A DNA stretch of 61,612 nt from a virus (lineage: Duplodnaviria > Caudoviricetes), in the IMG/VR virus record IMGVR_UViG_3300045972_000408, positions 1 through 61,612 of that record, one strand, 5' to 3'. This document shows positions 2,138 through 61,378 of the stretch, piece by piece. The position numbers were made by a program, and so were the translations under genes. Position 1 is the first letter of the stretch, and each line of letters opens with the position of its first letter. The notes under the pieces are model-generated. The model was not told the origin of the DNA. It made no database searches and was given only the letters and a program-made list of their open reading frames with translations.

Positions 2138-2319
2138 ATCGTTTCTTTCCGCCGAAGCTTGAAGTCTTCGAGGTCAGCCCGATCGAAGGCCATGCGGCGA
2201 TATTTCTTGCCGCGACCGATATTAATGAAGGTGATAGTGCCGTCGGCGACATGGCCGCGCAAGGTTTTCACAGAAATGCCGAGTTCTTGCGCCGCCTGGG
2301 CGGGCGAAAGTGTGCTCAT
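2023..2319 (-). CDS. HTH excisionase
   Basis: LSPAQAAQELGISVKTL MerR-like HTH, overlaps int start. Confidence 0.85.
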   Translation of the reverse strand: MSTLSPAQAAQELGISVKTLRGHVADGTITFINIGRGKKYRRMAFDRADLEDFKLRRKETICPSTSTKPRLSTTSTSGSVVVGFMARLSAQTNERPRR

Positions 2320-2960
2320 GGCGCGCCCCAGATGGTCTTGAAATTGGTGTCGAAACGGTCGCAGACGCCCGGTCCGCGCAAAAGGATCAAATCATTGTCC
2401 TGTTGCTTGAGGCCGCTCGCGCTGAAATTCGCCCCGCCGGTGCGAAGGGTCCGTTCGTCGATGCAGTAGGATTTCAGGTGCATCAGCGTGTGGTCATCCG
2501 CCTTGAAGCGAATCTCGACATTGCGGCTTTCGTTCAGCTTCCCGAGCGCCTCCTTCGGGCGTCCAAATGGCTCGGGGCCGCTGGAATCGCGATAGACGCG
2601 GATCTTGACGCCGCGTCCCGCCGCTGCGGTCAGGGCCTCAATGACGGCGACGTCGGTGAGGACATAGGCCGCCATGTCTATTTTTTCGCGCGCGGCCGTG
2701 AGTTGCGCGACGTCGATCTTTTCGAGGTTTTCGGTTGGGGCGTAATGGGTCTCGACTGTCAGCGGATCGGCCTGCGCCGCGCCGGCGGCTGCAAAAGCGA
2801 GGATTGTGGCGATCTGGATAGGCATGCGGGCCTTCATGATCTGTTCGTCCATGTCGAGCAGGGTTTCATAACGAGGGCCCGGCGGCCTGCGATTGGTTTG
2901 GCGCGGCGGGTTGAGGACGATAACGAACCAGCCAAAGACGGCAAAGGCGAGAAGTGGCAT
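2316..2960 (-). CDS. Phospholipase D-family (Nuc-like) nuclease, probably exported
   Basis: Single HLKSYCID (HxKxxxxD) plus GGANFS; hydrophobic/signal segments before catalytic domain; alternative start 2825. Confidence 0.9.
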   Translation of the reverse strand: MPLLAFAVFGWFVIVLNPPRQTNRRPPGPRYETLLDMDEQIMKARMPIQIATILAFAAAGAAQADPLTVETHYAPTENLEKIDVAQLTAAREKIDMAAYVLTDVAVIEALTAAAGRGVKIRVYRDSSGPEPFGRPKEALGKLNESRNVEIRFKADDHTLMHLKSYCIDERTLRTGGANFSASGLKQQDNDLILLRGPGVCDRFDTNFKTIWGAP

Positions 2961-2966
2961 GGCTGG

Positions 2967-4757
2967 TCACTCCGCTGCGAAAAGGGTTGCGATCGGCTCG
3001 CTCACGGGCTGGCGCTTGCGCGTCGTCGCGCGACACTCGTCCGGGGTGTAGTTCGCGGCGACAAGGGCCTTGGCCATGACGGGGCTGACGCTGTTGCCGC
3101 ACATGCGGACGGAGGCCGTTCCGGTCAGCTTTGTGCCGTCCGGGCGGCGGTCGATGACGTAGGAATCGGGGAAGCCCTGCGCGCGGAAAAGTTCGCGCGG
3201 ACGCAACATTCGCATGCCGATGTCGACGATCTCATAGGGCTCGCCGTGGACCATCACGAGGCCGAAGCGGTCGCGGGTCGGGACGGTATGCATCGGCTCG
3301 GCCGGGCTGACGCCGTCCTTGTCGTTGCCGTAATATTTGACCAGGAAGGCGCGCACCTCGGCGCTATGCGTCCCTTGCGCCGTCACGGTCGGATGCGGCG
3401 TCTCGATATCGCTGGCGCGGCGATCCGAGCCCTTGAGGCTCAAGAGGTGCGCCGAAACGACGCCCTGTTGCGCGCCGGTCGCGGTGACCGTCGAGACCGG
3501 TTCGTCCGCCGGTCGCGAGCCGGGGCATTTGCCGCCATTGTGCTGGGCGAGGAAGGCCGCGACGACGCCATGACGCGGCGCGCCAGCCATGACGGTGTGA
3601 AGGGGTTCGTCCGGCAGGTGGCCGACTGAGTTCTCGCTGAACTTGGTCAGGTGGACGGCGGCGAGGACAGAATCGGCCTTGGCCGTCACTGTCTGCAACG
3701 GCTCGTCCGCCGATCGTGGGCGCGATTGGCCGGCGCGACCGCCGCAACCGGCGATGACAGGAACAATGATCGCGTTCTGATCTTTTTTCGACGCCGTGAC
3801 GGTATGCAGGGGCGCATCGGCGGGGCGCGTCGCGCCGCCCTGCTGAGCATAGGTGACGACCGGGACGACGAGGCCGTGCGCGATCCCGCCGCCCGTAACC
3901 GTGCCGAGCGGCTCTTCCATCGGATACTCGCGGCGGCCGCCGGAAAACCCGTGCGCGACCGAAATAATAAACGGCTCGGCCGCGTCGATGACATAGCGCT
4001 GCACGCCCTTGGCGATGCGGGCCATCGTCGCCTCGGCCAGCGGGCGGTTGACGCCGACGGCGCGGCCTTCCTCTTTGGTCAAAAAGATTGAATGGCAGGG
4101 CAGCGTCCAGTCGATGATTTCTGCCGCGGTGCGCCAAGGCTGGAGCTTGCCGCTCTTGACCTCTTCGGATTTCGGATTGCCGTGCGTCGGCGTCGGCCAG
4201 ACGATGGGGCGGCCGTCGCAGCGGGCGACCAGAAACAGGCGCTTGCGGATGGTGGGCGCGCCATAGTCGCAGGCGCGCAGCTCGCGCCACTCGACCTTGT
4301 AGCCGAGCTTTTTGAACTCGCCGACCCATTTGCGGAAGGTCTCGCCCCGACGCCCAGCTGCGGGCCTATCTGTTTCGTCGAGCGGACACCAGTCCTGAAA
4401 CTCTTCGACGTTTTCGAGCAGGATCACGCGCGGGCGGCGCCGTTGCGCCCATAGTACGACAACCCACGCCAGGTCGCGGATGTTGCGCGACAGCGGCTTG
4501 CCGCCCTTGGCCTTGGAGTGGTGCTTGCAGTCCGGCGAGAACCAGGCGAGGCCGATTTGGCGGCCCGGCATGACCTCGTCGGGATCGATCTGCCAGATGT
4601 TCGAATTCAGGTGCAGGGTATCTGGGTGATTGACCTCGTGCATGGCGATGGCGTCGGCGTCGTGGTTGATCGCGACATCCGGCGAGCGTCCGAGCGCCAT
4701 TTCGATGCCGGTCGAGGCCCCGCCCCCGCCGGCGAAGGAATCGATGATGATTTCCAT
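2967..4757 (-). CDS. DNA cytosine-5 methyltransferase
   Basis: FAGGGG, SPDC, ENV, RKRLF, GNSV motifs. Confidence 0.95.
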   Translation of the reverse strand: MEIIIDSFAGGGGASTGIEMALGRSPDVAINHDADAIAMHEVNHPDTLHLNSNIWQIDPDEVMPGRQIGLAWFSPDCKHHSKAKGGKPLSRNIRDLAWVVVLWAQRRRPRVILLENVEEFQDWCPLDETDRPAAGRRGETFRKWVGEFKKLGYKVEWRELRACDYGAPTIRKRLFLVARCDGRPIVWPTPTHGNPKSEEVKSGKLQPWRTAAEIIDWTLPCHSIFLTKEEGRAVGVNRPLAEATMARIAKGVQRYVIDAAEPFIISVAHGFSGGRREYPMEEPLGTVTGGGIAHGLVVPVVTYAQQGGATRPADAPLHTVTASKKDQNAIIVPVIAGCGGRAGQSRPRSADEPLQTVTAKADSVLAAVHLTKFSENSVGHLPDEPLHTVMAGAPRHGVVAAFLAQHNGGKCPGSRPADEPVSTVTATGAQQGVVSAHLLSLKGSDRRASDIETPHPTVTAQGTHSAEVRAFLVKYYGNDKDGVSPAEPMHTVPTRDRFGLVMVHGEPYEIVDIGMRMLRPRELFRAQGFPDSYVIDRRPDGTKLTGTASVRMCGNSVSPVMAKALVAANYTPDECRATTRKRQPVSEPIATLFAAE

Positions 4758-7859: not shown

Positions 7860-8162
7860 TTATGGCTGGAGGGGTTGAGCGCGGTTGGCCGCGCGGGGCA
7901 GCATCGCAGCGCCGAGCGCGGTGAGGCGGATGGTGCTGGCCTGGGCGTGTTTGGCGATGAAGCCTTTTTTCGCCAGCGCCAGCACGTGGGTGCAAACGCA
8001 TCCTCGCGACGAGACTCCGACGTAAAAGCCGATTTCCTCATAGGAGGGGATAGCGCCGGCGGTTTGCAGATCGTCGATGACGGCGAGGATCTTGCCTTCC
8101 ATCGGCGTCAGGGGCGGAGGCAGCGGCCAATCCTTGCCGCAGTTGGGACAGGGCGCGTTCAT
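7860..8162 (-). CDS. LexA-type winged-HTH protein without peptidase domain
   Basis: CPNC then LT..E.KIL...PSYEEIG..VGVSS......LAKKGFI. Confidence 0.75.
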   Translation of the reverse strand: MNAPCPNCGKDWPLPPPLTPMEGKILAVIDDLQTAGAIPSYEEIGFYVGVSSRGCVCTHVLALAKKGFIAKHAQASTIRLTALGAAMLPRAANRAQPLQP

Positions 8163-9280
8163 GCCGGGAATTCCTTGTGTTGAACGCCATCGAGGAGGGA
8201 GCCCGCGCGGCGCTTGCCGACGCGGTACAGGCTTGCGCCGTTGGAAAATTCAAAAAGCTTGGGGCGAGCGAAGGGAATTTCGCCGTTATCGTCGCCGGTC
8301 CAAAGCCATTCGCCATGCTGCTTGAAGAAAAACGGGACGCCAGCCGCCGCGCATTGGTCGCGCAGCGCGCGCGGCCAGTCGGGGTGCATCGGGCGCGCGT
8401 GCGGGCCGCTTTCGCCGCCAGCTATGACCCAGTCGAGGCGCGTGTGCACATAAGGCTTCTGCGCAAAGCCGCGCCCGGTGTCTTCGAATTCGGTCCATTG
8501 GCCGTCTTCCAAAAACTCCTGCCACCACCATCCTGACAGCGCATTGACCCGCATGCGGTAGGTTGGTGTGTCCCTGAAATCGAGAAAGGCGTTCTCCGCA
8601 GGGTGAATGGCGGCGAGATCGATTTCGCCAAGTTGAGGCTCGACGCTGATGAACCGCTTCGCCGCAGGTATCGCCAGAATATCGGGGATGCGTTCGTCGG
8701 CGCGGGGTTGGTCTTCGACCGTACCGCCGGCCCAGATGCCCGGCGGCGGGTTTTCGGCTGAATAATCGTCGCAGGTCGCGCGGGCGTCGCCCTGGCGCCG
8801 GTTCAGCGGATCGCAGCGGTCAAGAACTTCCTGACCGGCGACGTCGTTGACTTCGTCCCAAAACCCGCCATCGTTCAGGAGCTTGCGGGCGCGCGCGGGG
8901 CGCTTGGTGAGCCATTGAAAGGTATGGCCGCGCAAATGATGTGCGGCGATCATGAGGCCGTAGATTTCGACGATTTTCCAATCTTCGACGGCCTGATGAA
9001 ACAGGTCAGACATGGAATTGACGAAGATGCGGCGCGGCTTTTTCCAGCGCAGCGGCATGTGAAGCGCGTAGTCGGGCGCGTGCGCGATCTTGCCGGTCCA
9101 GACCGGGCCGGCTTTGCTCGGCTGGGTCAGGCCGGCGTAATGGCCGGTCGGCTGCATGCGCTCGATCCGCGCGGCCTGCGCCATCGCGTAACAATTGGTG
9201 CAGGCCGGCGAGACGATGGAGCAGCCCGCGAGCGGGTTCCATGTGGCATCGGTCCATTCGATTCCGGTTTTATCGGCCAT
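8159..9280 (-). CDS. Phage Gp37/Gp68 (DUF5131) family protein
   Basis: IEWTDATWNP..GC..VS..CTNCYA, FVNSMSDLFH, GGESG, FFFKQ. Confidence 0.93.
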   Translation of the reverse strand: MADKTGIEWTDATWNPLAGCSIVSPACTNCYAMAQAARIERMQPTGHYAGLTQPSKAGPVWTGKIAHAPDYALHMPLRWKKPRRIFVNSMSDLFHQAVEDWKIVEIYGLMIAAHHLRGHTFQWLTKRPARARKLLNDGGFWDEVNDVAGQEVLDRCDPLNRRQGDARATCDDYSAENPPPGIWAGGTVEDQPRADERIPDILAIPAAKRFISVEPQLGEIDLAAIHPAENAFLDFRDTPTYRMRVNALSGWWWQEFLEDGQWTEFEDTGRGFAQKPYVHTRLDWVIAGGESGPHARPMHPDWPRALRDQCAAAGVPFFFKQHGEWLWTGDDNGEIPFARPKLFEFSNGASLYRVGKRRAGSLLDGVQHKEFPA

Positions 9281-9673: not shown

Positions 9674-10798
9674 TCAAACCCTCATCGGCATGAGGACGAT
9701 CAGCAGATCGGCGTCGGTGGCGGTGCGGAGGATGGTGGGGCTTTGGCTGTCGTTCAGTTCGATCCGGGCGTTGTCGCCGTCGAGCGCCGACAGGGCGTCG
9801 GCGAGGTAGCGGCTGTTGAAGCCGATCTCGATATGCGCGCCGGAATAGTCGCTCTCGACCTCCTCCGCCGCGCTGCCGACATCCGGATTGGCGACGGAGA
9901 GGGCCAGCGTCGGGCCTTCGAACACCAGCTTGACCGCCTTGCCGCGCTCGCTGGAGACGGTCGAGACGCGCTCGGCCGCGCTGGCGGTTTCTCCGCACGA
10001 GACCAGGGCGATGTTGACGTTCTGGGTCGGGATGACGCGGGTGTAATCGGGGAAGCTGCCATCGATCAGCTTGGAGAGGATGGTGGTTTCGCCCGAGCGG
10101 ACCATGATCTTGGTGTTGCTCAGTTCGATGTCGACGTGCGGCGCGCCGGCCTTGTCGTCTTTGGCGGCGGCCTCGGCGAGGCGCTGGATTTCGACGCAGG
10201 CGAGGCGCGGGACGATCACGCCGAAGCTGGATTCGATGCCGTCAGGCAAGGGCGCCGCTATGCGCGCGAGGCGGTGGCCATCGGTCGCGACCAGGCGCAG
10301 CTCGGTCTCGTCGGCGTGGAAATAAATGCCGTTGAGGTAGTAGCGGGTTTTCTCGGTCGATATGGCGAACGAGGTCTTCTTGATCGCCCGCGCGAGGCCT
10401 TCGGCCGGCAGGGTGAAGCGGTGGGTGATTTCGCCCTTTTCAAGCGTCGGGAAATCGCTGGACGGCAGGGTCGCGAGATGAAACTTGGCGCGGCCGGCGC
10501 GGATGACGAGGCGCGAGGTCACTGCGTCGAATTCGAGCGTGACCGCGTCGGCGGCGAGCTTGCGGACGATCTCGGCGAAGGTCGCGGCCGGGACGGTCAG
10601 GTCGCCGGGTGCGGTGATGTCGGCTTCGAGCGCGGTGTGCGCCTCGAGGTCGAGATCGGTGGCGGCAAGCGTGAGTTTTTCGCCGCTGGCGGTCAGGCGC
10701 AGATTGGCGAGGATCGGGATCGTGGTGCGCTTCTGCGCCACCCGGGAGACGAAATCGAGCGCTTTTCCGAGCGCGGCGCGGGAGAGGGTGAGTTTCAT
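9674..10798 (-). CDS. dnaN: DNA polymerase III beta sliding clamp (phage copy)
   Basis: TIPILAN, ATDLD, RYYLNG, VATDGHRL, FPDY, IGFN.RYL, LMPMRV. Confidence 0.97.
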   Translation of the reverse strand: MKLTLSRAALGKALDFVSRVAQKRTTIPILANLRLTASGEKLTLAATDLDLEAHTALEADITAPGDLTVPAATFAEIVRKLAADAVTLEFDAVTSRLVIRAGRAKFHLATLPSSDFPTLEKGEITHRFTLPAEGLARAIKKTSFAISTEKTRYYLNGIYFHADETELRLVATDGHRLARIAAPLPDGIESSFGVIVPRLACVEIQRLAEAAAKDDKAGAPHVDIELSNTKIMVRSGETTILSKLIDGSFPDYTRVIPTQNVNIALVSCGETASAAERVSTVSSERGKAVKLVFEGPTLALSVANPDVGSAAEEVESDYSGAHIEIGFNSRYLADALSALDGDNARIELNDSQSPTILRTATDADLLIVLMPMRV

Positions 10799-15052: not shown

Positions 15053-15898
15053 ATGGATTTCATTGCTTTGGACGTCGAGACCGCCAACGAGAATTTCGGA
15101 AGCATCTGCGCTATCGGCATCGCTGGCTTCAAGGACGGCGAACTCGTCAAATCATTAGAGTATCTGATTGATCCGCAAGACCATTTCTCTCAAATCAATA
15201 TCGACATTCACGGCATCACGCCGGCAATGGTTGCCGGCGCGCCCAATTTTGCCGGCATCCTTCCGCTCCTGACAGAGTCATTCGGCGCCATTCCTATCGC
15301 TTATCACACTCATTTTGACAGAGCGGCTGTCAACCGCGCGGCGGAAGCCGCTGGGTTGCCAGCTCCGCTATTCGCCTGGATTGACACTGCGCGCATCGCG
15401 CGTCGGACGTGGCCGAGATTCTCGCAACGCGGCTATGGCCTTAAAAATCTCGCCAAAGAGTTCGGGTTTAATTTCATCCATCACACCGCGCCCGAAGATG
15501 CTCGATGCGCCGGCCTCATTCTATTGAAGGCAATATCGGATAGCGGCCTCGGGCTCGCGGAATGGCAGGCTCTTGCGTCGCGACCTTTAACGCCGCGCCC
15601 GCGGGTCGCATTGGAGGGAAACCCAGACGGAGATTTGGCGGGAGAGGTCATCTGTTTTACCGGTGCGTTGACGCTCCCGCGAGCAACGGCGGCCGCGCTC
15701 GCCGCTGATTTAGGATGCGATGTCCGCGATAGTGTCACTACGGCGACGACCATTCTTGTCGTCGGCGAGCAAGATTTGCATAAGACTGCCGGCCAGCAAA
15801 AAAGTTCGAAACACCGCAAGGCAGAGGATATGATCGCCAAGGGGCAGGCTATCCGCATCGTCGGCGAGCACGATTTTCTTCAACTTGGCGTCAGCTAA
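15053..15898 (+). CDS. DEDDh 3'-5' exonuclease with C-terminal BRCT domain
   Basis: LDVETAN, FD, HTAPEDA; FTG.L..R..A..LG.....VT..T..LVVG...SSK BRCT. Confidence 0.93.
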   Translation: MDFIALDVETANENFGSICAIGIAGFKDGELVKSLEYLIDPQDHFSQINIDIHGITPAMVAGAPNFAGILPLLTESFGAIPIAYHTHFDRAAVNRAAEAAGLPAPLFAWIDTARIARRTWPRFSQRGYGLKNLAKEFGFNFIHHTAPEDARCAGLILLKAISDSGLGLAEWQALASRPLTPRPRVALEGNPDGDLAGEVICFTGALTLPRATAAALAADLGCDVRDSVTTATTILVVGEQDLHKTAGQQKSSKHRKAEDMIAKGQAIRIVGEHDFLQLGVS

Positions 15899-15905
15899 GC
15901 TGAAA

Positions 15906-16523
15906 TCATTTCGGGCAGATCGCCGTGATCGCCGCCACCCATTCGATTTGAGCATCGTAAATCGGCGGCTCGAATTGCGAGAGCAGCGTCCATCGCCCGG
16001 CTCTCTGACCTTTAGCCAAAAGTTTAATCAACACGCGTCCATCAACCAGCCCGACGACACAGACACGGCCTATGAATCGCGGCGACGCTGGCCGGCGCAC
16101 CTGATCGTACAGCGCCAACCACCCATTGAAAAATGGCCCTAGACTTTCGCCTCTGATTTCGACGGCGACCGTCAATAAGCTGATTTCCGGCCCTTTCACA
16201 TCGCCGAATGGGCCTTGTCCTTGATCAAACAAATGCGTCGCCGCGCCCGCTCCGACATGCCCGACCAGCGGGATCGCTAGCGGCTCCGCTTCGCTCGTTT
16301 CCTCAGGCCCTTTCCCCTCCATTAGCCACGTGACAGTTGTTTTCAGCACGGGCGCCAGCGCATTCAATGTTGTGATCGTCGCGCCGCGCCGCCCGGCGGC
16401 GACACCGCGCTTGATGTTGCGAATTCCGTCGGCGCTAAGGCCGGCCTGCTTCGACGCCGCAGTGGCTGAAAGGCCGACCACGTCGAGGCGCTTTTTAATC
16501 CGTTTGAGAATGTCGTCGAGCAT
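15906..16523 (-). CDS. CI-like repressor (HTH + S24 peptidase)
   Basis: XRE HTH, VGHVGAG cleavage region, GES..P serine, LIK lysine. Confidence 0.9.
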   Translation of the reverse strand: MLDDILKRIKKRLDVVGLSATAASKQAGLSADGIRNIKRGVAAGRRGATITTLNALAPVLKTTVTWLMEGKGPEETSEAEPLAIPLVGHVGAGAATHLFDQGQGPFGDVKGPEISLLTVAVEIRGESLGPFFNGWLALYDQVRRPASPRFIGRVCVVGLVDGRVLIKLLAKGQRAGRWTLLSQFEPPIYDAQIEWVAAITAICPK

Positions 16524-16527
16524 CGGG

Positions 16528-16604
16528 CAGCAAAATGACCGCTCATGCCTCCTTGGGCTATCGGTAATAAAACCGTTGACAAGCGCGGTAAAATTACCGA
16601 TATT
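16528..16604 (+). promoter_or_regulatory. PR promoter with three OR operators
   Basis: TTGACA(16576)-17-GATATT; 14-mers at 16528-16541 (degenerate), 16562-16575, 16586-16599. Confidence 0.85.
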
Positions 16605-16611
16605 CGGTTCC

Positions 16612-16857
16612 ATGAACAATATTCAACACCTTATTGCAGTGGCAGATGCCTATGCCCGACATCGGGGAATTGGGCTATCGGCTCTCTCGTCGAGAATCTT
16701 TGGTGACTCCAAAAAACTTCCAGCCCTCGTAGAAGGCCGCTGCGACATCTATTCGCGGCGCCTCGAAAGGGCGATTCTCTGGCTTTCCGATCATTGGCCA
16801 GACGGAGCGGATTGGCCGACTGACGTGCCGCGTCCTCAATCGGGAGGCGACGCGTGA
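16612..16857 (+). CDS. Cro-like protein
   Basis: Divergent from cI; LSSRIFGDSKKL...WLSDHWP.GA.WP..VPRP. Confidence 0.85.
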   Translation: MNNIQHLIAVADAYARHRGIGLSALSSRIFGDSKKLPALVEGRCDIYSRRLERAILWLSDHWPDGADWPTDVPRPQSGGDA

Positions 16858-30982: not shown

Positions 30983-31004
30983 ACTACAAAAGAGAGATTT
31001 GTTC

Positions 31005-31478
31005 ATGACGACGACGATTACGGTGCAGTCGCACAATTACCCCGCCCGCGTGCGGACCGTCGATAGATGGGAAGGCAACGTTCGCGCCGACGATCTTGTG
31101 CTTCGTCCCGAGGACGGGGTCCGGACGTTCCATTGCACCACGACCCGCACCATCGAAGTCGTCGATCTCGAATATGGCGAAAAGATCGCCGAACACGAAA
31201 AGCGCCTGGCCTTTGGCGCCGCCGTCGAAGCCCTGAAAGCTGGCCAGCGGGTCGCTCGCGCTGGCTGGAATGGCAAGGGCATGTTCCTGTTTCTGGTCAA
31301 CGGCTCGCGCTTCAAGGTGAACCGCGAGCCTTTGCTTTCCATTCTCGGCGAAGGAACCGAGGTCGATTATCACGCGCACATCGATTTGAAGACGGCGCAA
31401 GGCTATGTCGTTCCATGGCAGCCGTCGCAGGCCGATGTTCTCTCGAATGACTGGCAGATTGTTTCTGCCGTAGGATAA
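31005..31478 (+). CDS. DUF2829/Tad2-family anti-defence protein with extra N-terminal domain
   Basis: FG.A.EALK.G.RVAR.GWNGKGMF...VPW.PSQ.DVLS.DW. Confidence 0.88.
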   Translation: MTTTITVQSHNYPARVRTVDRWEGNVRADDLVLRPEDGVRTFHCTTTRTIEVVDLEYGEKIAEHEKRLAFGAAVEALKAGQRVARAGWNGKGMFLFLVNGSRFKVNREPLLSILGEGTEVDYHAHIDLKTAQGYVVPWQPSQADVLSNDWQIVSAVG

Positions 31479-51546: not shown

Positions 51547-52089
51547 ATGGCTGATTTTGACTGGAAGCAGATTGCCGGCCCGCTTGCCACGGCGGGCGGA
51601 ACGATCCTCGGCGGCGTGCTCGGCGGCCCTGCCGGAGCCATGCTTGGCCCGATGGTCGGGCATATCGTCGGGCAGGCGCTTGGCGTGGACCCGACGCCGG
51701 ACGCCATCGGTCCCGCGCTGCAACAGCCAGGCGCGGCGGAAAAGGTCGCGACCGCGCAGGCGCAAACGCAGGCCGCCGTTCTGTCGGCGCAGGACGCGTA
51801 TCTTGCCGATATTCAAAGCGCGCGACAGATGACCGTCGAACTGGTGCGCGAAAACTCGTCAATTGCATGGGGCGCCCCGGTCATTTCATTGGTCGTCGTC
51901 GTCGGGTTCTTCGCAATCCTCGGGCTGCTGATTTTTCATGGCGTACCGGACTCTCAAGCCGTTCTGATTTCGGTCGGGGCGCTCGGAGCCGCGTTTACGA
52001 CCGTGTTGGGTTTCTGGGTCGGCTCGTCCAAGGGGAGCGCCGACAAAACCGACGCGCTCACGACACTTGCGCGGCGCGCCGCCAAATAA
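51547..52089 (+). CDS. Holin-like membrane protein 1
   Basis: LGGP.G, D.QSAR, two TMs, FWVGSS.GS. Confidence 0.75.
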   Translation: MADFDWKQIAGPLATAGGTILGGVLGGPAGAMLGPMVGHIVGQALGVDPTPDAIGPALQQPGAAEKVATAQAQTQAAVLSAQDAYLADIQSARQMTVELVRENSSIAWGAPVISLVVVVGFFAILGLLIFHGVPDSQAVLISVGALGAAFTTVLGFWVGSSKGSADKTDALTTLARRAAK

Positions 52090-54191: not shown

Positions 54192-56102
54192 ATGCTGCTC
54201 GTTTTTAGCTCGCTTCTGCAATCGTCGGGGGGCGATTTCGGCGCGATTGCCGCGACAGAGGCCCAGGACACGGCCGCCTTTGCCGGCTCGACAATAAACC
54301 CGGTCGCCGCTGTGGCCCGCGCCACGCTGGTCGTTGAGCCCGAGATTCGCGTGCTCCAGGTCGCGCCGGAAATTCGTTCGTTGAGGGCATCAGACATGGC
54401 ATTCGCGGGAGATTTCAAGCCTAAATTCGTGGCGGGCACGTCCGAGGTGTTTTCGCTCGACTTTGCGAAGGTTCTCGACACCGGCGACGCTATTTCGAGC
54501 GTGACGTCAAGTATTTCCGTGCACTACGGCGCCGATCCCGACGCGGCTTCGTGGTTGAGTGGCAGCGCCTACTTTTCTGGGACCGTTGTCAGCCAGAGGC
54601 TCAGCGGCTTGGTCGGGGGCGTGGTCTACGACCTCATTTTCACCGTCTCGACCGCGAACGGCAACACGATCATTAAATTCGGGCGCGTGACATGCGTCGC
54701 GGTCTCCGGTGTCACAGCCGCCGAGAGTGCGGCGCTCAACGCGGTTGTGAATCTGGAATCTCTCGTCGCGACCCTGGGGCAACTGCCGACGCCGCAACTG
54801 GTCGCGTTCGCGCAGGCTGTGACCGTCGCCAAGGAAAACAGCTCCAAAACGACCATTGTCGTTTTTTGTTCCTCGGGCGGCCTGGCGGGCAGCGGAGCGA
54901 CGCCGTCCGCCGCCAACAACTGGGCGCCGCCGACCGGGAACTGGTCTGGCCTGCTCGCTGCCGCGCTCGCGCCGTCCGGCTGGACGGTCTACAATCGGTC
55001 GATTTCCGGCACGAGCACAGCCCAGAGCATCGCGCGGTTCTGGACCGATGTCGCGCCGCATATGCCGTCTCATGTGATTCTGGCAACGGGGATCGCAAAT
55101 GACGGGTATAATATCCATGGCTATTTTTCGGGCGTGCTGGAGATTATCCGGCTGTGCAAACTGATCGGCGCCGTGCCGGTCATTAGGAGCGTTTATCCGC
55201 ATAACGCCATGACCGCGTCGCAATACGCCGCTGTGCTTGGCCTCAACAGGCAACTGGCGGGCCTCGGCTATCCGTTCATTGACCAGATGAGCATTTTTGA
55301 CGACGGAGCCGGCCATTTTATCGGAGGGACGACCTACACCAGCGACGGTCAGCACCTTGGTGATCCCGGCAACGCCGCGATGTTCTCGCAGATCGACCTC
55401 GGTATTTTCACTTCGTTCACAGGCGGCCAGTGGATCACGCCGAAAAAGGCCGGCGCGTGGCAAATGTCGATTTCCGATTTGAGCGAAGTCGGCATCTGGG
55501 CGCGGCCGACGACGGAGGGGCTGGGCGCGAACATCAGGTCTTTCACGCTGCGCGCGAGGGTCAAATCGCAGTCCGGCGTTCCGGGCACGCGTGGAGTCAT
55601 GGGCGTCACGTTCCCGGCCTACAACCTGCGACTGCGGCACACGGGGCCTTATAATCTGGCGGACAGCGTCGGATCGCTCGTGACCTCGTCGATTTCGCCG
55701 CAGAGTGATTTCTCGGTGCATGACCTCGCGATGACCTACAATCACATCACCGATACCGCGGCGCTGTACGCCGATGGCGCCCTGATAGGGTCTGGAACCG
55801 CGAACGGGGTGGAGGACGTCATAACCGCCCTGTCGTTCGGGTCTCCGGTCGGCGCGGGCCTCTGCGCGTCCGGGCTGACATTTGCGGACATCGGCGCGTG
55901 GCAGACGCCGCTTTCCGCGCGCGAGATCGCGGCGATGTATCTGAGCGGCTATCTCCCGCGCAGCAGCATGATCCTCGACGCGGACCTCAGCACGCCGCCG
56001 AATGGAACGCTCGACGCCTACACCGGCGTCTGCCCGAACGCAATCTGCAACGGGATGCTCCCTGTCATCGGCGGATCGTGGCTGCCAGTCGCTGCGATTT
56101 AA
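54192..56102 (+). CDS. Adaptor + SGNH hydrolase + LamG-like multidomain protein
   Basis: LDF...L..GD.ISS adaptor; N.SISG, GIAND, DGQH; LY.DG, W..PLS..EI. Confidence 0.8.
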   Translation: MLLVFSSLLQSSGGDFGAIAATEAQDTAAFAGSTINPVAAVARATLVVEPEIRVLQVAPEIRSLRASDMAFAGDFKPKFVAGTSEVFSLDFAKVLDTGDAISSVTSSISVHYGADPDAASWLSGSAYFSGTVVSQRLSGLVGGVVYDLIFTVSTANGNTIIKFGRVTCVAVSGVTAAESAALNAVVNLESLVATLGQLPTPQLVAFAQAVTVAKENSSKTTIVVFCSSGGLAGSGATPSAANNWAPPTGNWSGLLAAALAPSGWTVYNRSISGTSTAQSIARFWTDVAPHMPSHVILATGIANDGYNIHGYFSGVLEIIRLCKLIGAVPVIRSVYPHNAMTASQYAAVLGLNRQLAGLGYPFIDQMSIFDDGAGHFIGGTTYTSDGQHLGDPGNAAMFSQIDLGIFTSFTGGQWITPKKAGAWQMSISDLSEVGIWARPTTEGLGANIRSFTLRARVKSQSGVPGTRGVMGVTFPAYNLRLRHTGPYNLADSVGSLVTSSISPQSDFSVHDLAMTYNHITDTAALYADGALIGSGTANGVEDVITALSFGSPVGAGLCASGLTFADIGAWQTPLSAREIAAMYLSGYLPRSSMILDADLSTPPNGTLDAYTGVCPNAICNGMLPVIGGSWLPVAAI

Positions 56103-56256
56103 TTCACATCAACTTTGGCTGTATTGCCGCCGCGCTCGCCATTTCCTGAGCCCTGAGCGCTCTTTTCCTCACCCCGATCTAACCAGCCCCCAATCCGAAC
56201 GCCCCCCTGCGACCGATCTGTCGCAGCGGTGACGCTTGCGCACGAAAGGTTTTGAC

Positions 56257-57075
56257 ATGACCGATTGGAACAAGGTTCTCCTGGCCATTGCGCCGCACGG
56301 TAAAAAGGCGATCCGCGATGGCTTCGCCGCCTCGCTGGACGCCTCCGTCGCGCGAGCCGGTCTGTCGTCCAAGCTGCGGCTGGCGCATTTTCTGGCGCAA
56401 TGCGCGCATGAAAGCGATGGCTTCCGGACAACGACTGAATATGCCAGCGGCGCGGCTTACGAAGGGCGCCCCGACCTCGGCAACACTAGACCGGGCGACG
56501 GCCGGCGCTGCAAAGGGCGCGGCCTGATCCAGAACACGGGCGCGGCAGCTTATCGTTTGCTGTCCAAGGTTTTCGGGGTCGATTTTTACGCCAACCCTGA
56601 GAAGCTGGCGGAATTCCCGTGGGCTGCGCTCGCCGCCGCCCACTATTGGGCAACGCATGTTTGCCACGACAAAAAGCGCCTCAATGACCTGGCGGACGCG
56701 AACGACATCGTCGGCGTGACGCATGGCGTCAACGGTGGCGTCAACGGCTTGGCGTCGCGCAAGGTCTATTTCGCCAGGGCCATGCACGCCCTGTCCGATC
56801 TCAAGGGCGCGCTCGTCGCGCGGGCCGCCGAGGAAACCCATGCCGCGTCCGCGAAAGCGGCTTCCGCGACCGCCGTCGTTACCAGCGGCGCGGTGTCCGC
56901 CGTGCCCGTCATCGTACCAAATGAAGCGACCCACGCCGCGCTCGGCAGCGGCGGCCAATGGGCGCTGATCGCGCTCGCCGTCGCGCTCGCCGCCGCCGGC
57001 GTCGCGCTTTTCGTGTCCATCCGCAAACACAATAACGCCGCCGCCACGCTGACGGCCGCCGCGCAAGGAGCCTGA
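56257..57075 (+). CDS. GH19 endolysin with C-terminal membrane segments
   Basis: AHFLAQ..HES, YEGR.DLGN..GDG, GRG.IQ.TG, VNGG.NG. Confidence 0.93.
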   Translation: MTDWNKVLLAIAPHGKKAIRDGFAASLDASVARAGLSSKLRLAHFLAQCAHESDGFRTTTEYASGAAYEGRPDLGNTRPGDGRRCKGRGLIQNTGAAAYRLLSKVFGVDFYANPEKLAEFPWAALAAAHYWATHVCHDKKRLNDLADANDIVGVTHGVNGGVNGLASRKVYFARAMHALSDLKGALVARAAEETHAASAKAASATAVVTSGAVSAVPVIVPNEATHAALGSGGQWALIALAVALAAAGVALFVSIRKHNNAAATLTAAAQGA

Positions 57076-57078
57076 CCC

Positions 57079-57651
57079 ATGGCCTTCGATCTTTCCACAC
57101 TCGAACCGCTGGCCGCGCAGCTCGCCAGGGCTGGCGCGCCGATCCTCGCGAACACGCTCGGGACGGTGCTTCCCTTCCCCGCCAACCTCATCGCAAAAAC
57201 GGTCATCGGCTCGCTTGCCGCGGCTTTCGGCGCCAACGCGGACGACCCGCAAGACCTGGCGAACAAGATCGCGGCCGATCCGGATGCCGCGGCCAAGTTG
57301 CAATCCGTCACGGATGAGCACGCGACCGACATCGCGTCGGCGCTTGATTTTGCCCGGTTGCAAACCGACGCCACCGATCGCGCGCTGGCGCTCGAGCCGA
57401 GCTTCTGGGGGCGGCTCTATGTCGGCGGCGCTCGCCCGGGAATGATGTGGGTGGGCGTGTTCGTCGCGATTTACCAAATCGTCGCCGCCGCGCGCGGGGG
57501 GACCCTTATCCCGTTCGACGTCTATGCGGCGACGCTCGCAACATTTGGAGCCCTTGCCGGCGTTCGGGGCTACGAAATGGTCAAGGGCGTCGCGCGCACC
57601 TCGCTGGTCGCGCCCGCCGCCAAGCTGGCCCCGCCCGTTCGCGGCAAGTGA
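57079..57651 (+). CDS. Holin-like membrane protein 2 (3TM GTA-holin type)
   Basis: G.RP..MW, G.RGYE..KG; follows endolysin. Confidence 0.78.
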   Translation: MAFDLSTLEPLAAQLARAGAPILANTLGTVLPFPANLIAKTVIGSLAAAFGANADDPQDLANKIAADPDAAAKLQSVTDEHATDIASALDFARLQTDATDRALALEPSFWGRLYVGGARPGMMWVGVFVAIYQIVAAARGGTLIPFDVYAATLATFGALAGVRGYEMVKGVARTSLVAPAAKLAPPVRGK

Positions 57652-57661
57652 GGATCGAGCC

Positions 57662-58057
57662 ATGGGTTTCGATATCGATTCCGCATCGAAAATCATCGCG
57701 ATCATCACCGGCATCTTCGTCATCGCCGGAACGATTTTCGGCGTCATCATAGCGCTGCGGCTCTCGGCGCAAAGCGCGGCGACAAAAGCGAGCACGGCCG
57801 AGGCGACGGCAAAAGACGCCAAATTGATCGCGCTCGCCGCCGAGAAGTCGGTGATCGAGGTCGCCAAGGACCTTGCAAAATTCCGCGAGGAGGCCGCCAG
57901 GGAATTCGTCACCGGCGAGGCCATTCGCAGCATCGAAGGCAGAATCGAGGCGGTCGGGCGCGAGATGCGCGACGGGCTCGACGACATCCGCAAGTCGATG
58001 ATCGAATTTTTCAGCCGGCGCACGACGCCGGCGTCCCGCTCGCGCTCCGATACCTGA
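57662..58057 (+). CDS. Membrane-anchored coiled-coil protein
   Basis: N-terminal TM, F.EE.A.EFVT. Confidence 0.75.
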   Translation: MGFDIDSASKIIAIITGIFVIAGTIFGVIIALRLSAQSAATKASTAEATAKDAKLIALAAEKSVIEVAKDLAKFREEAAREFVTGEAIRSIEGRIEAVGREMRDGLDDIRKSMIEFFSRRTTPASRSRSDT

Positions 58058-58070
58058 CCCAGGATTTTCC

Positions 58071-59411
58071 ATGCCGATTTCAAAGAAGGACGCCCGCCTC
58101 CGCATCGCGGCGGTGGAAAAAGCCCTGCGCGCCGGTCACCGGCCGCCGGGCGTCGACCTGGGCCTGCGCGCGCCCGGCGCCATCGCCGTGGCGGCGGCGG
58201 CGCTGAAGGTCACCGCATCCAGCCTGCGCGCGTCGCTGGTAACGGCGGAGACGCTGTATGGCCTCAAACCCAACTGGAAACTCTACAAGCCGGTCCCTTC
58301 TGATCCGAATGGACCAACGAAAGCTGCGGCCAAACCCGAAGAGCCGCCGGTCGAGCCCCTGACCCTGCGTCGCATTGCCGACCAGCTCGCGCGCGAGCGG
58401 ACGTTGCGCGCCTCGGCCGAGCGCGCGGCCGTGACGGCGCAGGGCCTGCGCGAGGGCGTTTTCCGGCTGGCCGCGACGCCGCCGGAGCCCGAAAGCTGGC
58501 AAGCGCAAAGCGCCGAGGATGGGCGCCATCGCGAAGTGATCGTGCTGCCGATCAGCGACGTCCACATGGGCGAAGTAATCGATTTCGACCAGATGGGCGG
58601 GCGCAACGCCTATAACAAAACCATCGCCGCGCGGCGGCTGGAGCGGCTGTTTCAATCGGTGGTGAAACTCGGAACGACGCATTGGCGCGGCCCCGCGCCG
58701 GCGGCGATCTATGTCGTGCTGCTTGGCGACCTCATCACCGGCGAAATCCATGAAGAGCTGGCGAAAACCAACGATCTCTTGTCAATCCCCGCCGTGCGCG
58801 AGCTTTCGGGCCATCTGATCGCCGGCATGAACCTGCTGCTGGCGTCGTTCGAATGCGAAATCCGCGTCGTGAGCCTGCCGGGCAATCATGGCCGCACCAC
58901 GCGCAAGCCGGAAGCCAAAGGCTCCATCGTCAACAGCTATGACACGCTCGTCGCCTGGAGCGTCGAGAGCTGGTTTCGCGCGCGCGAGACGCCGAGGATC
59001 ACGTTCACCGCGCCGGCCAGCGGCGACGCGCTGATCGACATCAACGGCTGGAAAATCCTGTTCACCCACGGCAACAATATCGGCTCGCGCGGCGGCATGG
59101 GCTTCATCGGCCCGGCGGCGACCATCGCGCGCGGCATGCAGCGCGTGATCCAGGACTATGCCGCGGTCGGACAGATCGTCGACTTTGTCGTGACCGGCCA
59201 TTTTCACACGCCGATCGAGCTGGAGCAGGGATTCTGCAACGGATCCGTGCCGGGACCGTCCGAATATTCGATGCAGGGCCGCATGCGGTCGCATCCGGCG
59301 AGCCAATGGTTCCTGTCGATCCATCCCGAAATCGGCGTCGCGCGCCGCTGGAAACTGTTTCTGGGCCATCCGGACGAAGGCTCGATCTATCGAGGAAGGA
59401 CCGCGCCATGA
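58071..59411 (+). CDS. Calcineurin-like metallophosphoesterase with N-terminal helical region
   Basis: SDVH, GD, GNH, HG, GHFH. Confidence 0.9.
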   Translation: MPISKKDARLRIAAVEKALRAGHRPPGVDLGLRAPGAIAVAAAALKVTASSLRASLVTAETLYGLKPNWKLYKPVPSDPNGPTKAAAKPEEPPVEPLTLRRIADQLARERTLRASAERAAVTAQGLREGVFRLAATPPEPESWQAQSAEDGRHREVIVLPISDVHMGEVIDFDQMGGRNAYNKTIAARRLERLFQSVVKLGTTHWRGPAPAAIYVVLLGDLITGEIHEELAKTNDLLSIPAVRELSGHLIAGMNLLLASFECEIRVVSLPGNHGRTTRKPEAKGSIVNSYDTLVAWSVESWFRARETPRITFTAPASGDALIDINGWKILFTHGNNIGSRGGMGFIGPAATIARGMQRVIQDYAAVGQIVDFVVTGHFHTPIELEQGFCNGSVPGPSEYSMQGRMRSHPASQWFLSIHPEIGVARRWKLFLGHPDEGSIYRGRTAP

Positions 59412-59632
59412 TCGACCATAACAGGCTTGTCGGCGAAGCCGTGGCGCATGACGCCGCCTTGAAACTTGAAAAATCGGCGTGCGACCTTGCCCGCGTCGCT
59501 GGCCAGCTTGCGCCCGATCAGGACAACGAGCTGCGCCACATCGTGGCCAGGGTTCGCGCCATCGCGGCGGCGGCGAAGCCGCGCCCCGTCCCGCAACGGG
59601 TCGAGGTTCCCGGCGATGTGAGGGATTTCTGA
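59408..59632 (+). CDS. Small helical protein
   Basis: ATGA and TGATG coupling. Confidence 0.65.
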   Translation: MIDHNRLVGEAVAHDAALKLEKSACDLARVAGQLAPDQDNELRHIVARVRAIAAAAKPRPVPQRVEVPGDVRDF

Positions 59633-60015
59633 TGAAAATTTGCGATCTGTCATGGACCGGCGGCTTTTGGTATCTCGGCTCGCCCTATTCCAAATATCCA
59701 TCCGGGCCGGAAGCGGCGTTCTTGTGCGCCGCCGCTATCGCGGCAGAGCTGTTGAAACAGGGGGTGCCGATCTTCTGCCCGATCGCACATTCCCACCCGC
59801 TTGCGCAATACGGTCAGATCGACCCGCTCGACCATAAGATATGGCTTCCAGCGGATCGCCCGATGATGGATGCGGCAACGGGTTTGATCGTCGCTCAGAT
59901 GGAAGGGTGGCGCGAAAGCTATGGCCTGACGCATGAAATCGAGGTTTTCACAGCGGCTGGAAAGCCGGTGCTTTATCTCGACATGCGCGAATACACCCTG
60001 TCGGAGCGGCCGTAA
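59632..60015 (+). CDS. DUF1937 (nucleoside 2-deoxyribosyltransferase-like fold)
   Basis: YLGSPYS, PIAHSHP, GW.ES.G...EI. Confidence 0.88.
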   Translation: MKICDLSWTGGFWYLGSPYSKYPSGPEAAFLCAAAIAAELLKQGVPIFCPIAHSHPLAQYGQIDPLDHKIWLPADRPMMDAATGLIVAQMEGWRESYGLTHEIEVFTAAGKPVLYLDMREYTLSERP

Positions 60016-60452
60016 TGAGTGAGAGCAAGCCGACCAATCCCAAAGACCAGATCGCGGTGGCGAAACTGCCGCTGCACCTGGTCCCCTCGACGCTGCCGAT
60101 CTATGCCGCGCTGGCCTTCGCCGAGGGCGCGTCGAAATACGGCGCCTATAACTGGCGAGCGGCCGGCGTGCGCGCGAGCGTCTACAGGAGCGCGCTCGAC
60201 CGGCATCTGGCCAAATGGTGGAACGGCGAGGACGCCGACCCAGCCACCAACGTCCCGCATCTGGCCTCGGCGCTGGCCTGCATCGGCATCATTCTCGACG
60301 CCCAGCTTTGCGGCAAACTGACGGACGACCGGCCTCCGCCGGCGCCGATGGGCGAGCTGATCGACGACGCCGAACCGATCATCGCCGAACTTTTCCGCAT
60401 GTTCGCGGATCGGAAACCGAAGCACTGGACCACAGCCGACAAGATCGACTGA
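60015..60452 (+). CDS. DUF5664 dATP/dGTP diphosphohydrolase-domain protein
   Basis: TNPKD, K.PL.LVP, GA.KYG.YNWR, RH...W..GED.D, HL, DDR. Confidence 0.9.
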   Translation: MSESKPTNPKDQIAVAKLPLHLVPSTLPIYAALAFAEGASKYGAYNWRAAGVRASVYRSALDRHLAKWWNGEDADPATNVPHLASALACIGIILDAQLCGKLTDDRPPPAPMGELIDDAEPIIAELFRMFADRKPKHWTTADKID

Positions 60453-60453
60453 C

Positions 60454-60490
60454 AAAAGCCCCGCCGGAGCAATCCGAGCGGGGTGCTTTA
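60454..60490 (+). terminator. Terminator of late/post-lysis operon
   Basis: AAAAGCCCCGC...GCGGGGTGCTTT. Confidence 0.6.
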
Positions 60491-60571: not shown

Positions 60572-60597
60572 GTGGCGCGCGCCGGAACGCGCGCCAC
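60572..60597 (-). terminator. Hairpin downstream of KilA-N gene
   Basis: GTGGCGCGCG-CCGGAA-CGCGCGCCAC. Confidence 0.55.
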
Positions 60598-60601
60598 CAT
60601 G

Positions 60602-61378
60602 TTAGACAAGACGTTTTTTGCGGTCCGATTTATCAGCCTCAATTGCTTGGCGGATAAAACTGGCGCTGCGGCTTGTCGCCGCCGTACACTCTCGGTTCCC
60701 TTGGCTTTTTTCTTCCCGGATCCTGCCGGAGGCTAAAACTTCGGCCGCCATGGTTAGAACCAGTTCGTCAGTAGGCATATGTTCGCGAAGATTTTCATTC
60801 GCGGGTAAGTTGCGGCTAAGCTTCAGAGCCTTTGCGGTCCCTCCAAATAGCTGCCTGTAGGTCGCGTCAGTACATTGCGCATACCCAAAACCGCTCACGC
60901 CGTGATCGCGAAGGGTATCGGTGTATTGGTTTCTCTTGGCTCGCCCCAGCGCCCTTATTGCGGCGCGCTCATTGGCTTCCGGCGACGCGCGCTGGAGGAC
61001 GTCGTCCGCAAGGGAAGCGTCGCCAGACTTGAAGCGGAGGAAAACCTCGTTGACTTCGTAATGGAGCGCGTCAGAAAGGTATTTTGCGTAAGACAGCGCA
61101 ATAATCGGGTCCGCCCAGACGCCGCCACCCCGACCGTTGCGAACACAATATACTGATAATACGGCGTCTTTTGACAAAGGTCCGGATTTTCCGGACCTTT
61201 TTTCGGCGACAGTCGCGACAAATCGAACCGTATTTCCAAGCGCGCCCCAATCCTTTGGCTGCTGGTTGCTAGAGAATCCGCCCGCTTTGTGGATATCGTT
61301 CAGGCGAACGCGTCCCTTGTCATCAACCCCGATGTTGCGCCCGCGCAACTTCAGAAATGTCATTGCATTTTCGGTCAT
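60602..61378 (-). CDS. KilA-N domain protein
   Basis: LNDIHKA.G....P.DW, GRGGG.WA....A..YA.YLS. Confidence 0.9.
   Translation of the reverse strand: MTENAMTFLKLRGRNIGVDDKGRVRLNDIHKAGGFSSNQQPKDWGALGNTVRFVATVAEKRSGKSGPLSKDAVLSVYCVRNGRGGGVWADPIIALSYAKYLSDALHYEVNEVFLRFKSGDASLADDVLQRASPEANERAAIRALGRAKRNQYTDTLRDHGVSGFGYAQCTDATYRQLFGGTAKALKLSRNLPANENLREHMPTDELVLTMAAEVLASGRIREEKSQGNRECTAATSRSASFIRQAIEADKSDRKKRLV

Follow-up and report, generated by a model that had tools for sequence, protein, structure and literature searches.

A four-gene cassette behind the lysis genes of a temperate phage as a putative module for the handling of DNA and DNA precursors

What use might a phage make of four tightly coupled genes, placed directly behind its lysis genes, that encode a metallophosphoesterase, a small protein and two predicted nucleotide enzymes? 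The question is raised by the IMG/VR virus record IMGVR_UViG_3300045972_000408 (Duplodnaviria; Caudoviricetes), the whole of which, 61,612 nucleotides (61.6 kb; 62.5% G+C), has been analysed and is called here the window. The record is given as linear in IMG/VR and its completeness has been estimated by CheckV at 76%. The cassette in question comprises the following features:

58071-59411, plus strand: metallophosphoesterase (MPE) with a putative helix-turn-helix (HTH) domain, 446 amino acids (aa)
59408-59632, plus strand: small helical protein, 74 aa
59632-60015, plus strand: DUF1937 protein, 127 aa
60015-60452, plus strand: stand-alone DUF5664 protein, 145 aa
60458-60498, plus strand: intrinsic-terminator-like hairpin with a U-rich tail, closing the operon

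We propose that the cassette is a phage-side module for the handling of DNA and DNA precursors at the tail of the late operon, in which two sub-modules meet at the deoxynucleoside monophosphates (dNMPs), and we give this proposal about an even chance. It is built on the gene structure, the family membership of the products, the conservation of their catalytic residues and the recurrent adjacency of the genes, all of which have been observed directly.

The four genes are joined by start/stop overlaps (ATGA at 59408-59411, TGATG at 59630-59634 and TAATG at 60013-60017), and 6-16 nt before every start there stands a purine-rich run resembling a Shine-Dalgarno sequence. For the 74-aa and 127-aa genes, ATGs inside longer, mechanically delimited open reading frames (ORFs) were taken as starts because the homologues start at the same place. 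The hairpin proper (60458-60484), with an interrupted U tract behind it, has a minimum free energy of -23.1 kcal/mol (z -2.18), with 5 of 200 shuffled sequences folding equally well; a simple terminator scan of the plus strand did not pick it up, which we attribute to the limit of 8 loop bases in the scan. Since the stop codon of the preceding spanin-like gene (58057) is separated from the MPE start by 13 nt, and no sigma-70-like promoter was found between 55500 and 61612, the cassette most likely rides on the late/lysis transcript as its tail end. Its third-codon-position G+C content (GC3) of 0.82-0.84 lies inside the range of the phage, for which reason a compositionally foreign moron was rejected as an explanation.

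A first-pass annotation, made from the sequence alone, had described four overlapping coupled genes in a post-lysis position, closed by a terminator and encoding metallophosphoesterase, DUF1937 and DUF5664 domains. All of this holds: the ORFs, the three overlaps and the hairpin are read directly from the sequence, genes for an endolysin, a holin-like and a spanin-like protein lie directly 5′ of the cassette, and the three domain calls exceed the Pfam cut-offs. None of the four proteins has a match in NCBIfam, nor to any component profile of PADLOC-DB 2.0 at E <= 0.01.

The MPE passes the cut-off of Pfam Metallophos (PF00149) with 21.9 bits against 21.5 (E 2.7e-4), the same family matches 43 of 50 homologues at E <= 0.01, and among the PHROGs the protein falls in phrog_284, labelled 'exonuclease' (1.7e-40). 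Across the 50 homologues D163, D220, N272, H273, H333, H377 and H379 are invariant and H165 is conserved in at least 90%; these residues we take, from general knowledge of the superfamily, to represent the dimetal motifs DxH, GD, GNH, H and GHxH. The AlphaFold2 model (pLDDT 85) comprises a three-helix N-terminal domain (about residues 1-75), a long helix (96-129) and the core (about 139-446). Although a sequence search of the PDB gave nothing useful, structural comparison found 55 chains at Z >= 8 (Foldseek E about 1e-8), and the 50 listed (Z 8.5-15.2) all belong by title to the MPE superfamily. The best is the DP1 subunit of PolD (5ihe; Z 15.2, root-mean-square deviation 3.9 over 240 residues), followed by the B subunit of Pol delta (14.5), the small archaeal phosphodiesterase 1s3l (13.6) and SbcD, Mre11 and LpxH (12.8; for Mre11/SbcD entries 7dog and 3qg5). 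A protein phosphatase of the lambda type was rejected, the best structures being of the DP1/Mre11/LpxH type and PP5 reaching Z 8.7.

The fold picture thus drawn from the model leans towards a nuclease without being decisive. With DP1 and Mre11/SbcD the MPE shares an equal set of dimetal ligands, at an identity of 12-20%, and it differs from them by having no match to an OB or capping domain and by an N-terminal HTH and long helix that are particular to its phage family. The DP1 hallmarks are missing as well, in that no polymerase partner was found in the window and the N-terminus is helical, not OB. Scans of window ORFs against PHROGs and Pfam annotated neither DP2 nor Rad50/SbcC, in a record that may be incomplete. 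The helical N-terminus had earlier been proposed as a sensor; it is better described as an HTH-type, DNA-binding domain, judged by the model and by the HTH families that Pfam assigns to some homologues (HTH_8 in 7 and HTH_30 in 5 of 50). In Bacteroides phage BU2-2 a member of the MPE family adjoins SSB/PolA. The Pfam labels YonJ_N and YonJ_CC were seen on look-alike Atlas clusters, and a literature search on YonJ gave nothing relevant.

The 74-aa protein has no family match in Pfam, PHROGs, NCBIfam or PADLOC, and 4 representatives were all that was found among 1.84 billion proteins. Their alignment has 14 invariant columns and a conserved C-terminal tail, PGDV(R/A). Homologues are encoded directly 3′ of the MPE gene in two of the loci compared below, L044 (42% identity) and L046 (45%), and by this sequence evidence the protein is a lineage-specific helical partner gene product of the MPE. 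A complex prediction for the two proteins scored 0.00, below the mark, a value that is evidence in neither direction. In phage contigs of lower G+C content (L004-L019, e.g. L008:7326-7571) another small ORF, conserved and acidic and 75-81 aa long, stands behind the MPE, and its 7 distinct sequences form one BLAST cluster; in L008 and L017 the genes to either side of the MPE and the small ORF lie on the opposite strand, as in a unit of its own.

DUF1937 (PF09152) is matched by the third protein at 1.9e-23, with 83.7 bits against a cut-off of 23. The same protein matches the nucleoside 2-deoxyribosyltransferase (NDT) family phrog_355 (2e-9) and the functionally unassigned PDB entry 1t1j (PA1492; E 7.6e-11), and weakly, below the cut-off, the NDT family PF05014 (0.0019); on these sequence matches it is placed in the superfamily of nucleoside 2-deoxyribosyltransferases and dNMP N-hydrolases. 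In 41 sequences Y14 and D75 are invariant and E102 is conserved in at least 90%, so that the Tyr, Asp and Glu of DNPH1/Rcl, the NDTs and PA1492 are all represented; DNPH1/Rcl and the NDTs differ by lacking the additional conserved motif PIAHSHP of DUF1937, in which H53 and H55 are invariant. A literature search found no published activity for any DUF1937 protein. In the single ORF at L041:4617-5366, residues 46-110 form a nucleotide-kinase domain (phrog_236) and residues 126-231 a DUF1937/NDT-like domain fused to it; the ORF adjoins the gene of a polymerase processivity factor; the fusion hints that the product of DUF1937 may be phosphorylated onward.

The last protein of the cassette matches DUF5664, i.e. 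dGTP_diPhyd_N (PF18909), at 2e-23 (82.6 bits against a cut-off of 27), as well as phrog_2252/801, and is a predicted dNTP pyrophosphohydrolase that would convert deoxynucleoside triphosphates (dNTPs) to dNMP and pyrophosphate. There are 1176 homologues of similar length, with 40 invariant columns that include E37, K41, Y42, G43, N46, W47, R48, R63, H64, D75, H82, D95, D104, D105 and R106. The domain is present in 393 isolated phage records, and in the T7-like contigs L028, L032 and L033 its gene has that of the DNA polymerase exonuclease subunit on one side and the ligase/RNA polymerase genes on the other. Searches with its model (pLDDT 74) gave a best Z of 5.0 and nothing by Foldseek at E <= 0.001; among the 50 listed matches 7 are, by title, MazG-like or related pyrophosphatases (2p06, 4qgp, 7ody, 2yxh, 2a3q, 2oie, 3cra), at Z 3.9-4.9, which is below a meaningful level for helical bundles. 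A sequence search of the PDB gave nothing useful here either. In phrog_2252 and in RefSeq phage records DUF5664 proteins carry the label 'endolysin; inhibits RNA polymerase', which looks like a propagated mis-annotation in view of the enzymology published in 2026.

That enzymology concerns the PurZ0 actinophages. The stand-alone DUF5664 protein of Arthrobacter phage Wayne has been reported to convert dATP, dUTP and dGTP to the dNMPs (Poubanne et al., NAR 2026, PMC12884076). The NDT-like enzyme DmtZ releases adenine from dAMP and transfers deoxyribose-5-phosphate to 2-aminoadenine by means of a catalytic triad Tyr/Asn(Asp)/Glu, and DutZ, DmtZ and DUF5664-1 together form the nucleotide set of the PurZ0 phages (PMC12884076). 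From the position in the motif, Y14, D75 and E102 of the DUF1937 protein would correspond to Tyr6, Asn77 and Glu103 of DmtZ. The DUF5664 protein of the cassette is 43% identical to Wayne gp51, the enzyme assayed there, over a core of 54 residues (BLASTP E 5e-12), the core alone being aligned.

Do these genes belong together? Relatives of the MPE were collected in 44 loci (22 viral and 22 genomic), which form 22 clusters at 80% identity, 21 of them assessable, and the three same-strand ORFs 3′ of the MPE were examined in each. A dNMP kinase is encoded there in 7 of the 21 clusters (L022, L044, L045, L046, L048 group, L056 group and L058) and a DUF5664 protein in 3 (L051, L055 and L061), so that one or the other stands just 3′ of the MPE in 10 of 21, over a range of MPE identities of 29-74%. 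Single clusters have a sub-threshold DUF5664 protein (L052), a HAD phosphatase (L053) or a DUF6378 protein (L047) in this place. The start/stop overlap of the MPE gene is kept in L022, L044, L046 and L051. The closest relatives of the MPE come from Rhodoblastus sp. 17X3 (74%) and from a metagenome-assembled genome (72%); both have holin/endolysin genes, the MPE, a homologue of the 74-aa protein (42-45%, with an ATGA-type overlap) and a dNMP kinase. At 32% MPE identity, L055 presents the order MPE, NDT (PF05014), 88-aa ORF and DUF5664 next to an integrase gene, which is the composition of the cassette built from different family members.

Collections seeded with the other proteins agree with this. 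An MPE gene lies directly upstream of DUF5664 in 3 of 14 DUF5664-seeded viral loci (L026, L027 and L030), each time separated by one to three ORFs from lysis or tail-lysozyme genes on its 5′ side, and an NDT-like gene lies directly upstream in 2 of the 14 (L034 and L036). Among 4 DUF1937-seeded loci, one has DUF5664 adjacent (L043) and one is the kinase-DUF1937 fusion (L041). Relatives of DUF1937, DUF5664 or the small protein were found within 6 kb in 0 of the 22 viral MPE loci (MPE identity 47-62%). By profile comparison (hhalign), the DUF1937 protein is not significantly related to the PF05014 protein of L055 (E 0.12), and DUF5664 has no significant relation to the DUF6378 protein of L047 or to the 88-aa protein of L055. 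In L018, L020 and L023 an inserted HNH-AP2 homing endonuclease gene follows immediately on the MPE gene, and in L054 a gene for a protein like Thoeris anti-defence 2 (Tad2) lies three ORFs after it (7965-8300).

The cassette is therefore no fixed system of four genes; it combines, as a mosaic, two sub-modules that recur elsewhere. Co-occurrence of the genes elsewhere had been proposed as a check, and it was found for pairs, which recur in unrelated lineages; the full set of four is absent except for the divergent L055. We read the first sub-module as the MPE with its small protein and the second as a variable slot, which would hold an enzyme that makes or consumes dNMPs, because the closest relatives have a dNMP kinase where the cassette has DUF1937 and DUF5664.

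In the scheme that we favour, the substrates, the nuclease activity and target of the MPE, the direction of flux and the timing are what we infer. The HTH-MPE, DP1/Mre11-like, would cut DNA together with the small protein, either the host chromosome or replication/recombination intermediates, and so yield dNMPs or processed ends. DUF5664 would hydrolyse selected dNTPs to dNMP and pyrophosphate, and DUF1937 would then split the dNMP, or exchange its base, to give free base and deoxyribose-5-phosphate; in the closest relatives a dNMP kinase would act in place of this breakdown pair. The path from dNTP through dNMP to base and deoxyribose-5-phosphate is likely because both DUF5664 and the NDT-like DmtZ were assayed in the 2026 paper. 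As a net effect, the dNTP/dNMP pool would be controlled or sanitised, and nucleotides that are not wanted would be disposed of, while the phage goes through its lytic cycle. Replication modules of lytic phages, among them T7-like contigs and Bacteroides phages, also contain these families, which suggests a role in the cycle of the phage itself, and since they are found there and no PADLOC match was obtained, we favour phage-side precursor handling over defence.

Of the function suggested in the first-pass annotation, a pathway degrading or remodelling nucleotide signals or pools, the pool part is supported by the DUF5664/NDT biochemistry (PMC12884076) and by the MPE neighbourhoods; the assignment to counter-defence or prophage defence is not, given the lack of a PADLOC match and the presence of the DUF5664 and MPE families in phage replication modules. 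The statement that no system of this composition had been described has become outdated for one half of the cassette, since the set of NDT-like enzyme and DUF5664 (with Dut) was published for PurZ0 phages in 2026 (PMC12884076). What is new in the cassette is its arrangement, in which phage nucleotide enzymes that are known and in part characterised stand next to a DNA-binding phosphoesterase that is widespread and uncharacterised. A system of a categorically new kind it is not, and there is no evidence that marks it as defence.

How far does it resemble systems already known? In Wayne PurZ0 is followed by DUF5664, a 73-aa ORF and DmtZ-DutZ, in this order. The likeness of the PurZ0 actinophages Wayne and Ghobes lies in a stand-alone DUF5664, homologous in its core, near a dNMP enzyme of the NDT superfamily, with a Tyr/Asp-or-Asn/Glu triad in both NDT-type proteins. 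They differ in that PurZ0 and a DpoZ-type polymerase were not found in our window and Dut is not among its annotated ORFs, in that the NDT-like protein of the cassette belongs to another family (DUF1937), and in that the cassette pair is coupled to an MPE, stands behind the lysis genes and is carried by a phage of an alphaproteobacterial host. The 73-aa ORF of Wayne (L068, 16223-16444), lying between the DUF5664 and DmtZ-DutZ genes, echoes the small ORF of the cassette; the 74-aa profile showed no significant relation to Wayne gp52 (hhalign). In Acinetobacter phage SH-Ab 15497 DUF5664 is the N-terminal domain of a MazZ/DUF550-DUF5664 fusion (PMC12884076). This fusion and MazZ of cyanophage S-2L are dATP/dGTP pyrophosphohydrolases in phage control of the nucleotide pool and are alike in that respect, whereas the DUF5664 protein of the cassette lacks the DUF550 domain and resembles S-2L MazZ weakly in structure (7ody, Z 4.2).

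In function, the closest analogue is seen in phage T5, where A1, which acts in the degradation of host DNA and is presumably a metallophosphoesterase, shares an operon with the 5′-deoxyribonucleotidase Dmp, so that a nuclease function is combined with a dNMP-destroying enzyme. The proposed logic, DNA degradation followed by dNMP disposal, is equal. No relation was detected between the MPE profile and the single T5 A1 sequence (hhalign E 0.64), a weak test; what Dmp cleaves off is the phosphate, whereas with DUF1937 it would be the base, and the T5 genes are pre-early whereas the cassette stands at the end of a late operon. Phage DNA replication requires the mycobacteriophage MPE represented by Bxb1 gp47 and L5 gp54, which is also an excision factor. 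It too is a phage metallophosphoesterase, encoded in a DNA replication region; with 255 aa, Bxb1 gp47 has no HTH, and comparison revealed no specific relation to it (hhalign E 0.011, probability 3.8%).

On the bacterial side, the PUA-Calcineurin-CE-HAD defence described in a preprint (bioRxiv 10.64898/2026.01.15.699771) likewise combines a calcineurin-like enzyme with a second nucleotide phosphohydrolase and has dNMPs as end products, and MazG-like proteins can replace the calcineurin domain in such systems. It differs in being a defence of bacteria that has a PUA sensor and assembles into filaments, whereas the cassette has neither PUA nor HAD, lies in a phage late operon and has an HTH in place of the sensor.

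The remainder of the window contains terminase, portal, capsid, tape measure and tail fibre genes and, in addition, the following:

995-2137, minus strand: integrase
2316-4757, minus strand: PLD-family nuclease domain protein and 596-aa C5 cytosine methylase, adjoining the integrase gene
9674-10798, minus strand: DNA polymerase III beta clamp with all three domains
15053-15898, plus strand: RNase_T-type exonuclease with a BRCT domain
15906-16619, minus strand: repressor
19.9-26.4 kb: primase/helicase genes
30999-31478, plus strand: Tad2-like domain protein (PF11195, 5e-25), between the large terminase and portal genes
54192-56102: GDSL/tail-fibre protein
56236-57075, plus strand: GH19-type endolysin (phrog_181, 5e-48)
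57079-57651, plus strand: holin-like protein of 190 aa (phrog_1544), so classed from its sequence
57662-58057, plus strand: spanin-like protein of 131 aa, so classed from its sequence
60602-61378, minus strand: KilA-N gene (5.1e-11) with a DinD/DdrC-like C-terminal part, 3′ of the cassette and convergent to it

By its gene content this layout is that of a temperate siphovirus. The nuclease and the methylase beside the integrase gene may form a restriction-modification-like or anti-restriction pair. Because the phage encodes its own beta clamp and exonuclease and no polymerase was found, it appears to borrow the replicase of its host. The holin-like gene has a paralogue among the tail-fibre genes (51547-52089, plus strand); both match phrog_1544, the paralogue at 7.9e-15 and the holin-like protein at 3.5e-4. 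The KilA-N gene also matches the PADLOC candidate systems PDC-S13 (3.2e-13) and PDC-S22, and a strong GC hairpin (60575-60592) lies directly past its stop codon. No attachment site was apparent: exact repeats of >=10 nt shared by the initial 1100 and the terminal 362 bases were not found, nor was a repeat of att type among the 20 largest of at least 60 families of direct repeats in the whole window. In the contigs of three pond-metagenome DNA runs, identical short pieces of the same phage occur in two further samples, one of the pieces across 59579-60125.

Several observations weigh against a joint module as proposed here. No nucleotide enzyme lies 3′ of the MPE in 8 of the 21 clusters, and the exact four-gene set occurs in none of 22+14+4 viral loci and once, in divergent form, in 22 genomic loci. 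The DUF1937 protein is, by sequence, not detectably related to DmtZ beyond the motif, since its profile aligned with Wayne DmtZ-DutZ only over S-x-G...E (hhalign E 0.15), and the fold search with DUF5664 did not rise above the Z of 5.0 given above. The fold matches of the MPE are generic for its superfamily, 1s3l and LpxH scoring about as high as the nucleases; given these scores and the precedent of Calcineurin-CE, the MPE may, by analogy, act on a nucleotide such as a dNDP or NAD+ and not on DNA. Finally, it is not obvious what a phage that apparently depends on the polymerase of its host would gain from a dNTP-destroying pair in its late operon.

The four genes might accordingly be a mosaic without a joint pathway, i.e. 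accessory genes acquired independently at an insertion-tolerant end of the late operon, with the MPE and the small protein acting on DNA in replication, recombination or excision and the other two being separate house-cleaning enzymes. The shuffling of the sub-modules, the dNMP kinase in place of DUF1937 and DUF5664 in the closest relatives (72-74%), the 0 of 22 viral MPE loci with any of the other three families, the many unrelated contexts of DUF5664 and the homing endonucleases right after the MPE all speak for it. We nevertheless consider it unlikely, since a gene that makes or uses dNMPs follows the MPE directly in nearly half of the clusters over a wide span of MPE identity, the start/stop overlaps are kept in four loci, and L055 represents an independent MPE-NDT-DUF5664 set. 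Synthesis of a non-canonical base has, in our estimate, a very slight chance: DUF1937 would act as a deoxyribose-5-phosphate transferase, placing an unusual base, destined for the phage DNA, on the dNMP that DUF5664 supplies, as DmtZ does with 2-aminoadenine (PMC12884076), and the product might be phosphorylated onward, as the kinase-DUF1937 fusion would allow. DUF1937 is not detectably an orthologue of DmtZ, however, and no scanned ORF is annotated as a base-synthesis enzyme. The first-pass annotation had seen no polymerase or PurZ in the window and judged base replacement unlikely; we concur, as PF00709 (PurA/PurZ) and PF00476 (family A polymerase) have no match in six frames of this linear and possibly incomplete record, a polymerase or PurZ is not among the scanned ORFs either, and replacement of the Z type is therefore unlikely here.

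Two further explanations place the cassette in the conflict between phage and host. As counter-defence, its enzymes would remove nucleotide-derived alarm signals, be it modified dNMPs that trigger PUA-Calcineurin-HAD immunity or signals of the cyclic or ADP-ribose type. According to the preprint, m6-dAMP released by phage-induced degradation of host DNA activates a dNTP-depleting defence (bioRxiv 10.64898/2026.01.15.699771), and a dNMP N-hydrolase or dNMP kinase acting after a nuclease could erase a signal of this kind; the same phage also encodes the Tad2-like protein. We regard counter-defence as quite improbable, because a literature search found no known anti-defence protein in the MPE, DUF1937 or DUF5664 families and expression from the end of the late operon would come too late against an early alarm. 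In a special form, to which we assign a low probability indeed, the slot after the MPE would hold 'dNMP erasers' (an NDT-like N-hydrolase or a dNMP kinase) that remove modified dNMPs such as m6-dAMP and so hide the footprint of the phage's own DNA degradation from nucleotide sensing of the PUA-Calcineurin type; if true, counter-defence would gain a new class, one in which the metabolic footprint of infection is concealed. Defence by the prophage, or superinfection exclusion, by purine dNTP depletion and cutting of incoming DNA is a reading we hold to be very improbable. Depletion of dNTPs is a known principle, and calcineurin-like and MazG-like effectors occur in such systems (same preprint); moreover, the MPE and small ORF units of L008 and L017 look moron-like. 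Against it stand the zero PADLOC matches of the four proteins, the 13-nt gap to the lysis genes with no promoter-like site, a GC3 inside the phage's range, and the presence of the families in T7-like and Bacteroides phage replication modules.

The handling of DNA and DNA precursors thus stays our preferred reading of the cassette. It links three widespread and poorly understood families, the HTH-MPE of phrog_284, DUF1937 and DUF5664, at one node, the dNMP, and carries the chemistry published in 2026 for DUF5664 and NDT-like enzymes beyond the Z-genome actinophages, to ordinary temperate phages whose hosts are alphaproteobacteria. Should the proposed flux be true, many temperate phages would, in late infection, be breaking down purine dNTPs and dNMPs or diverting them, which would bear on the recycling of host DNA, on nucleotide-sensing immunity and on the annotation of such genes.

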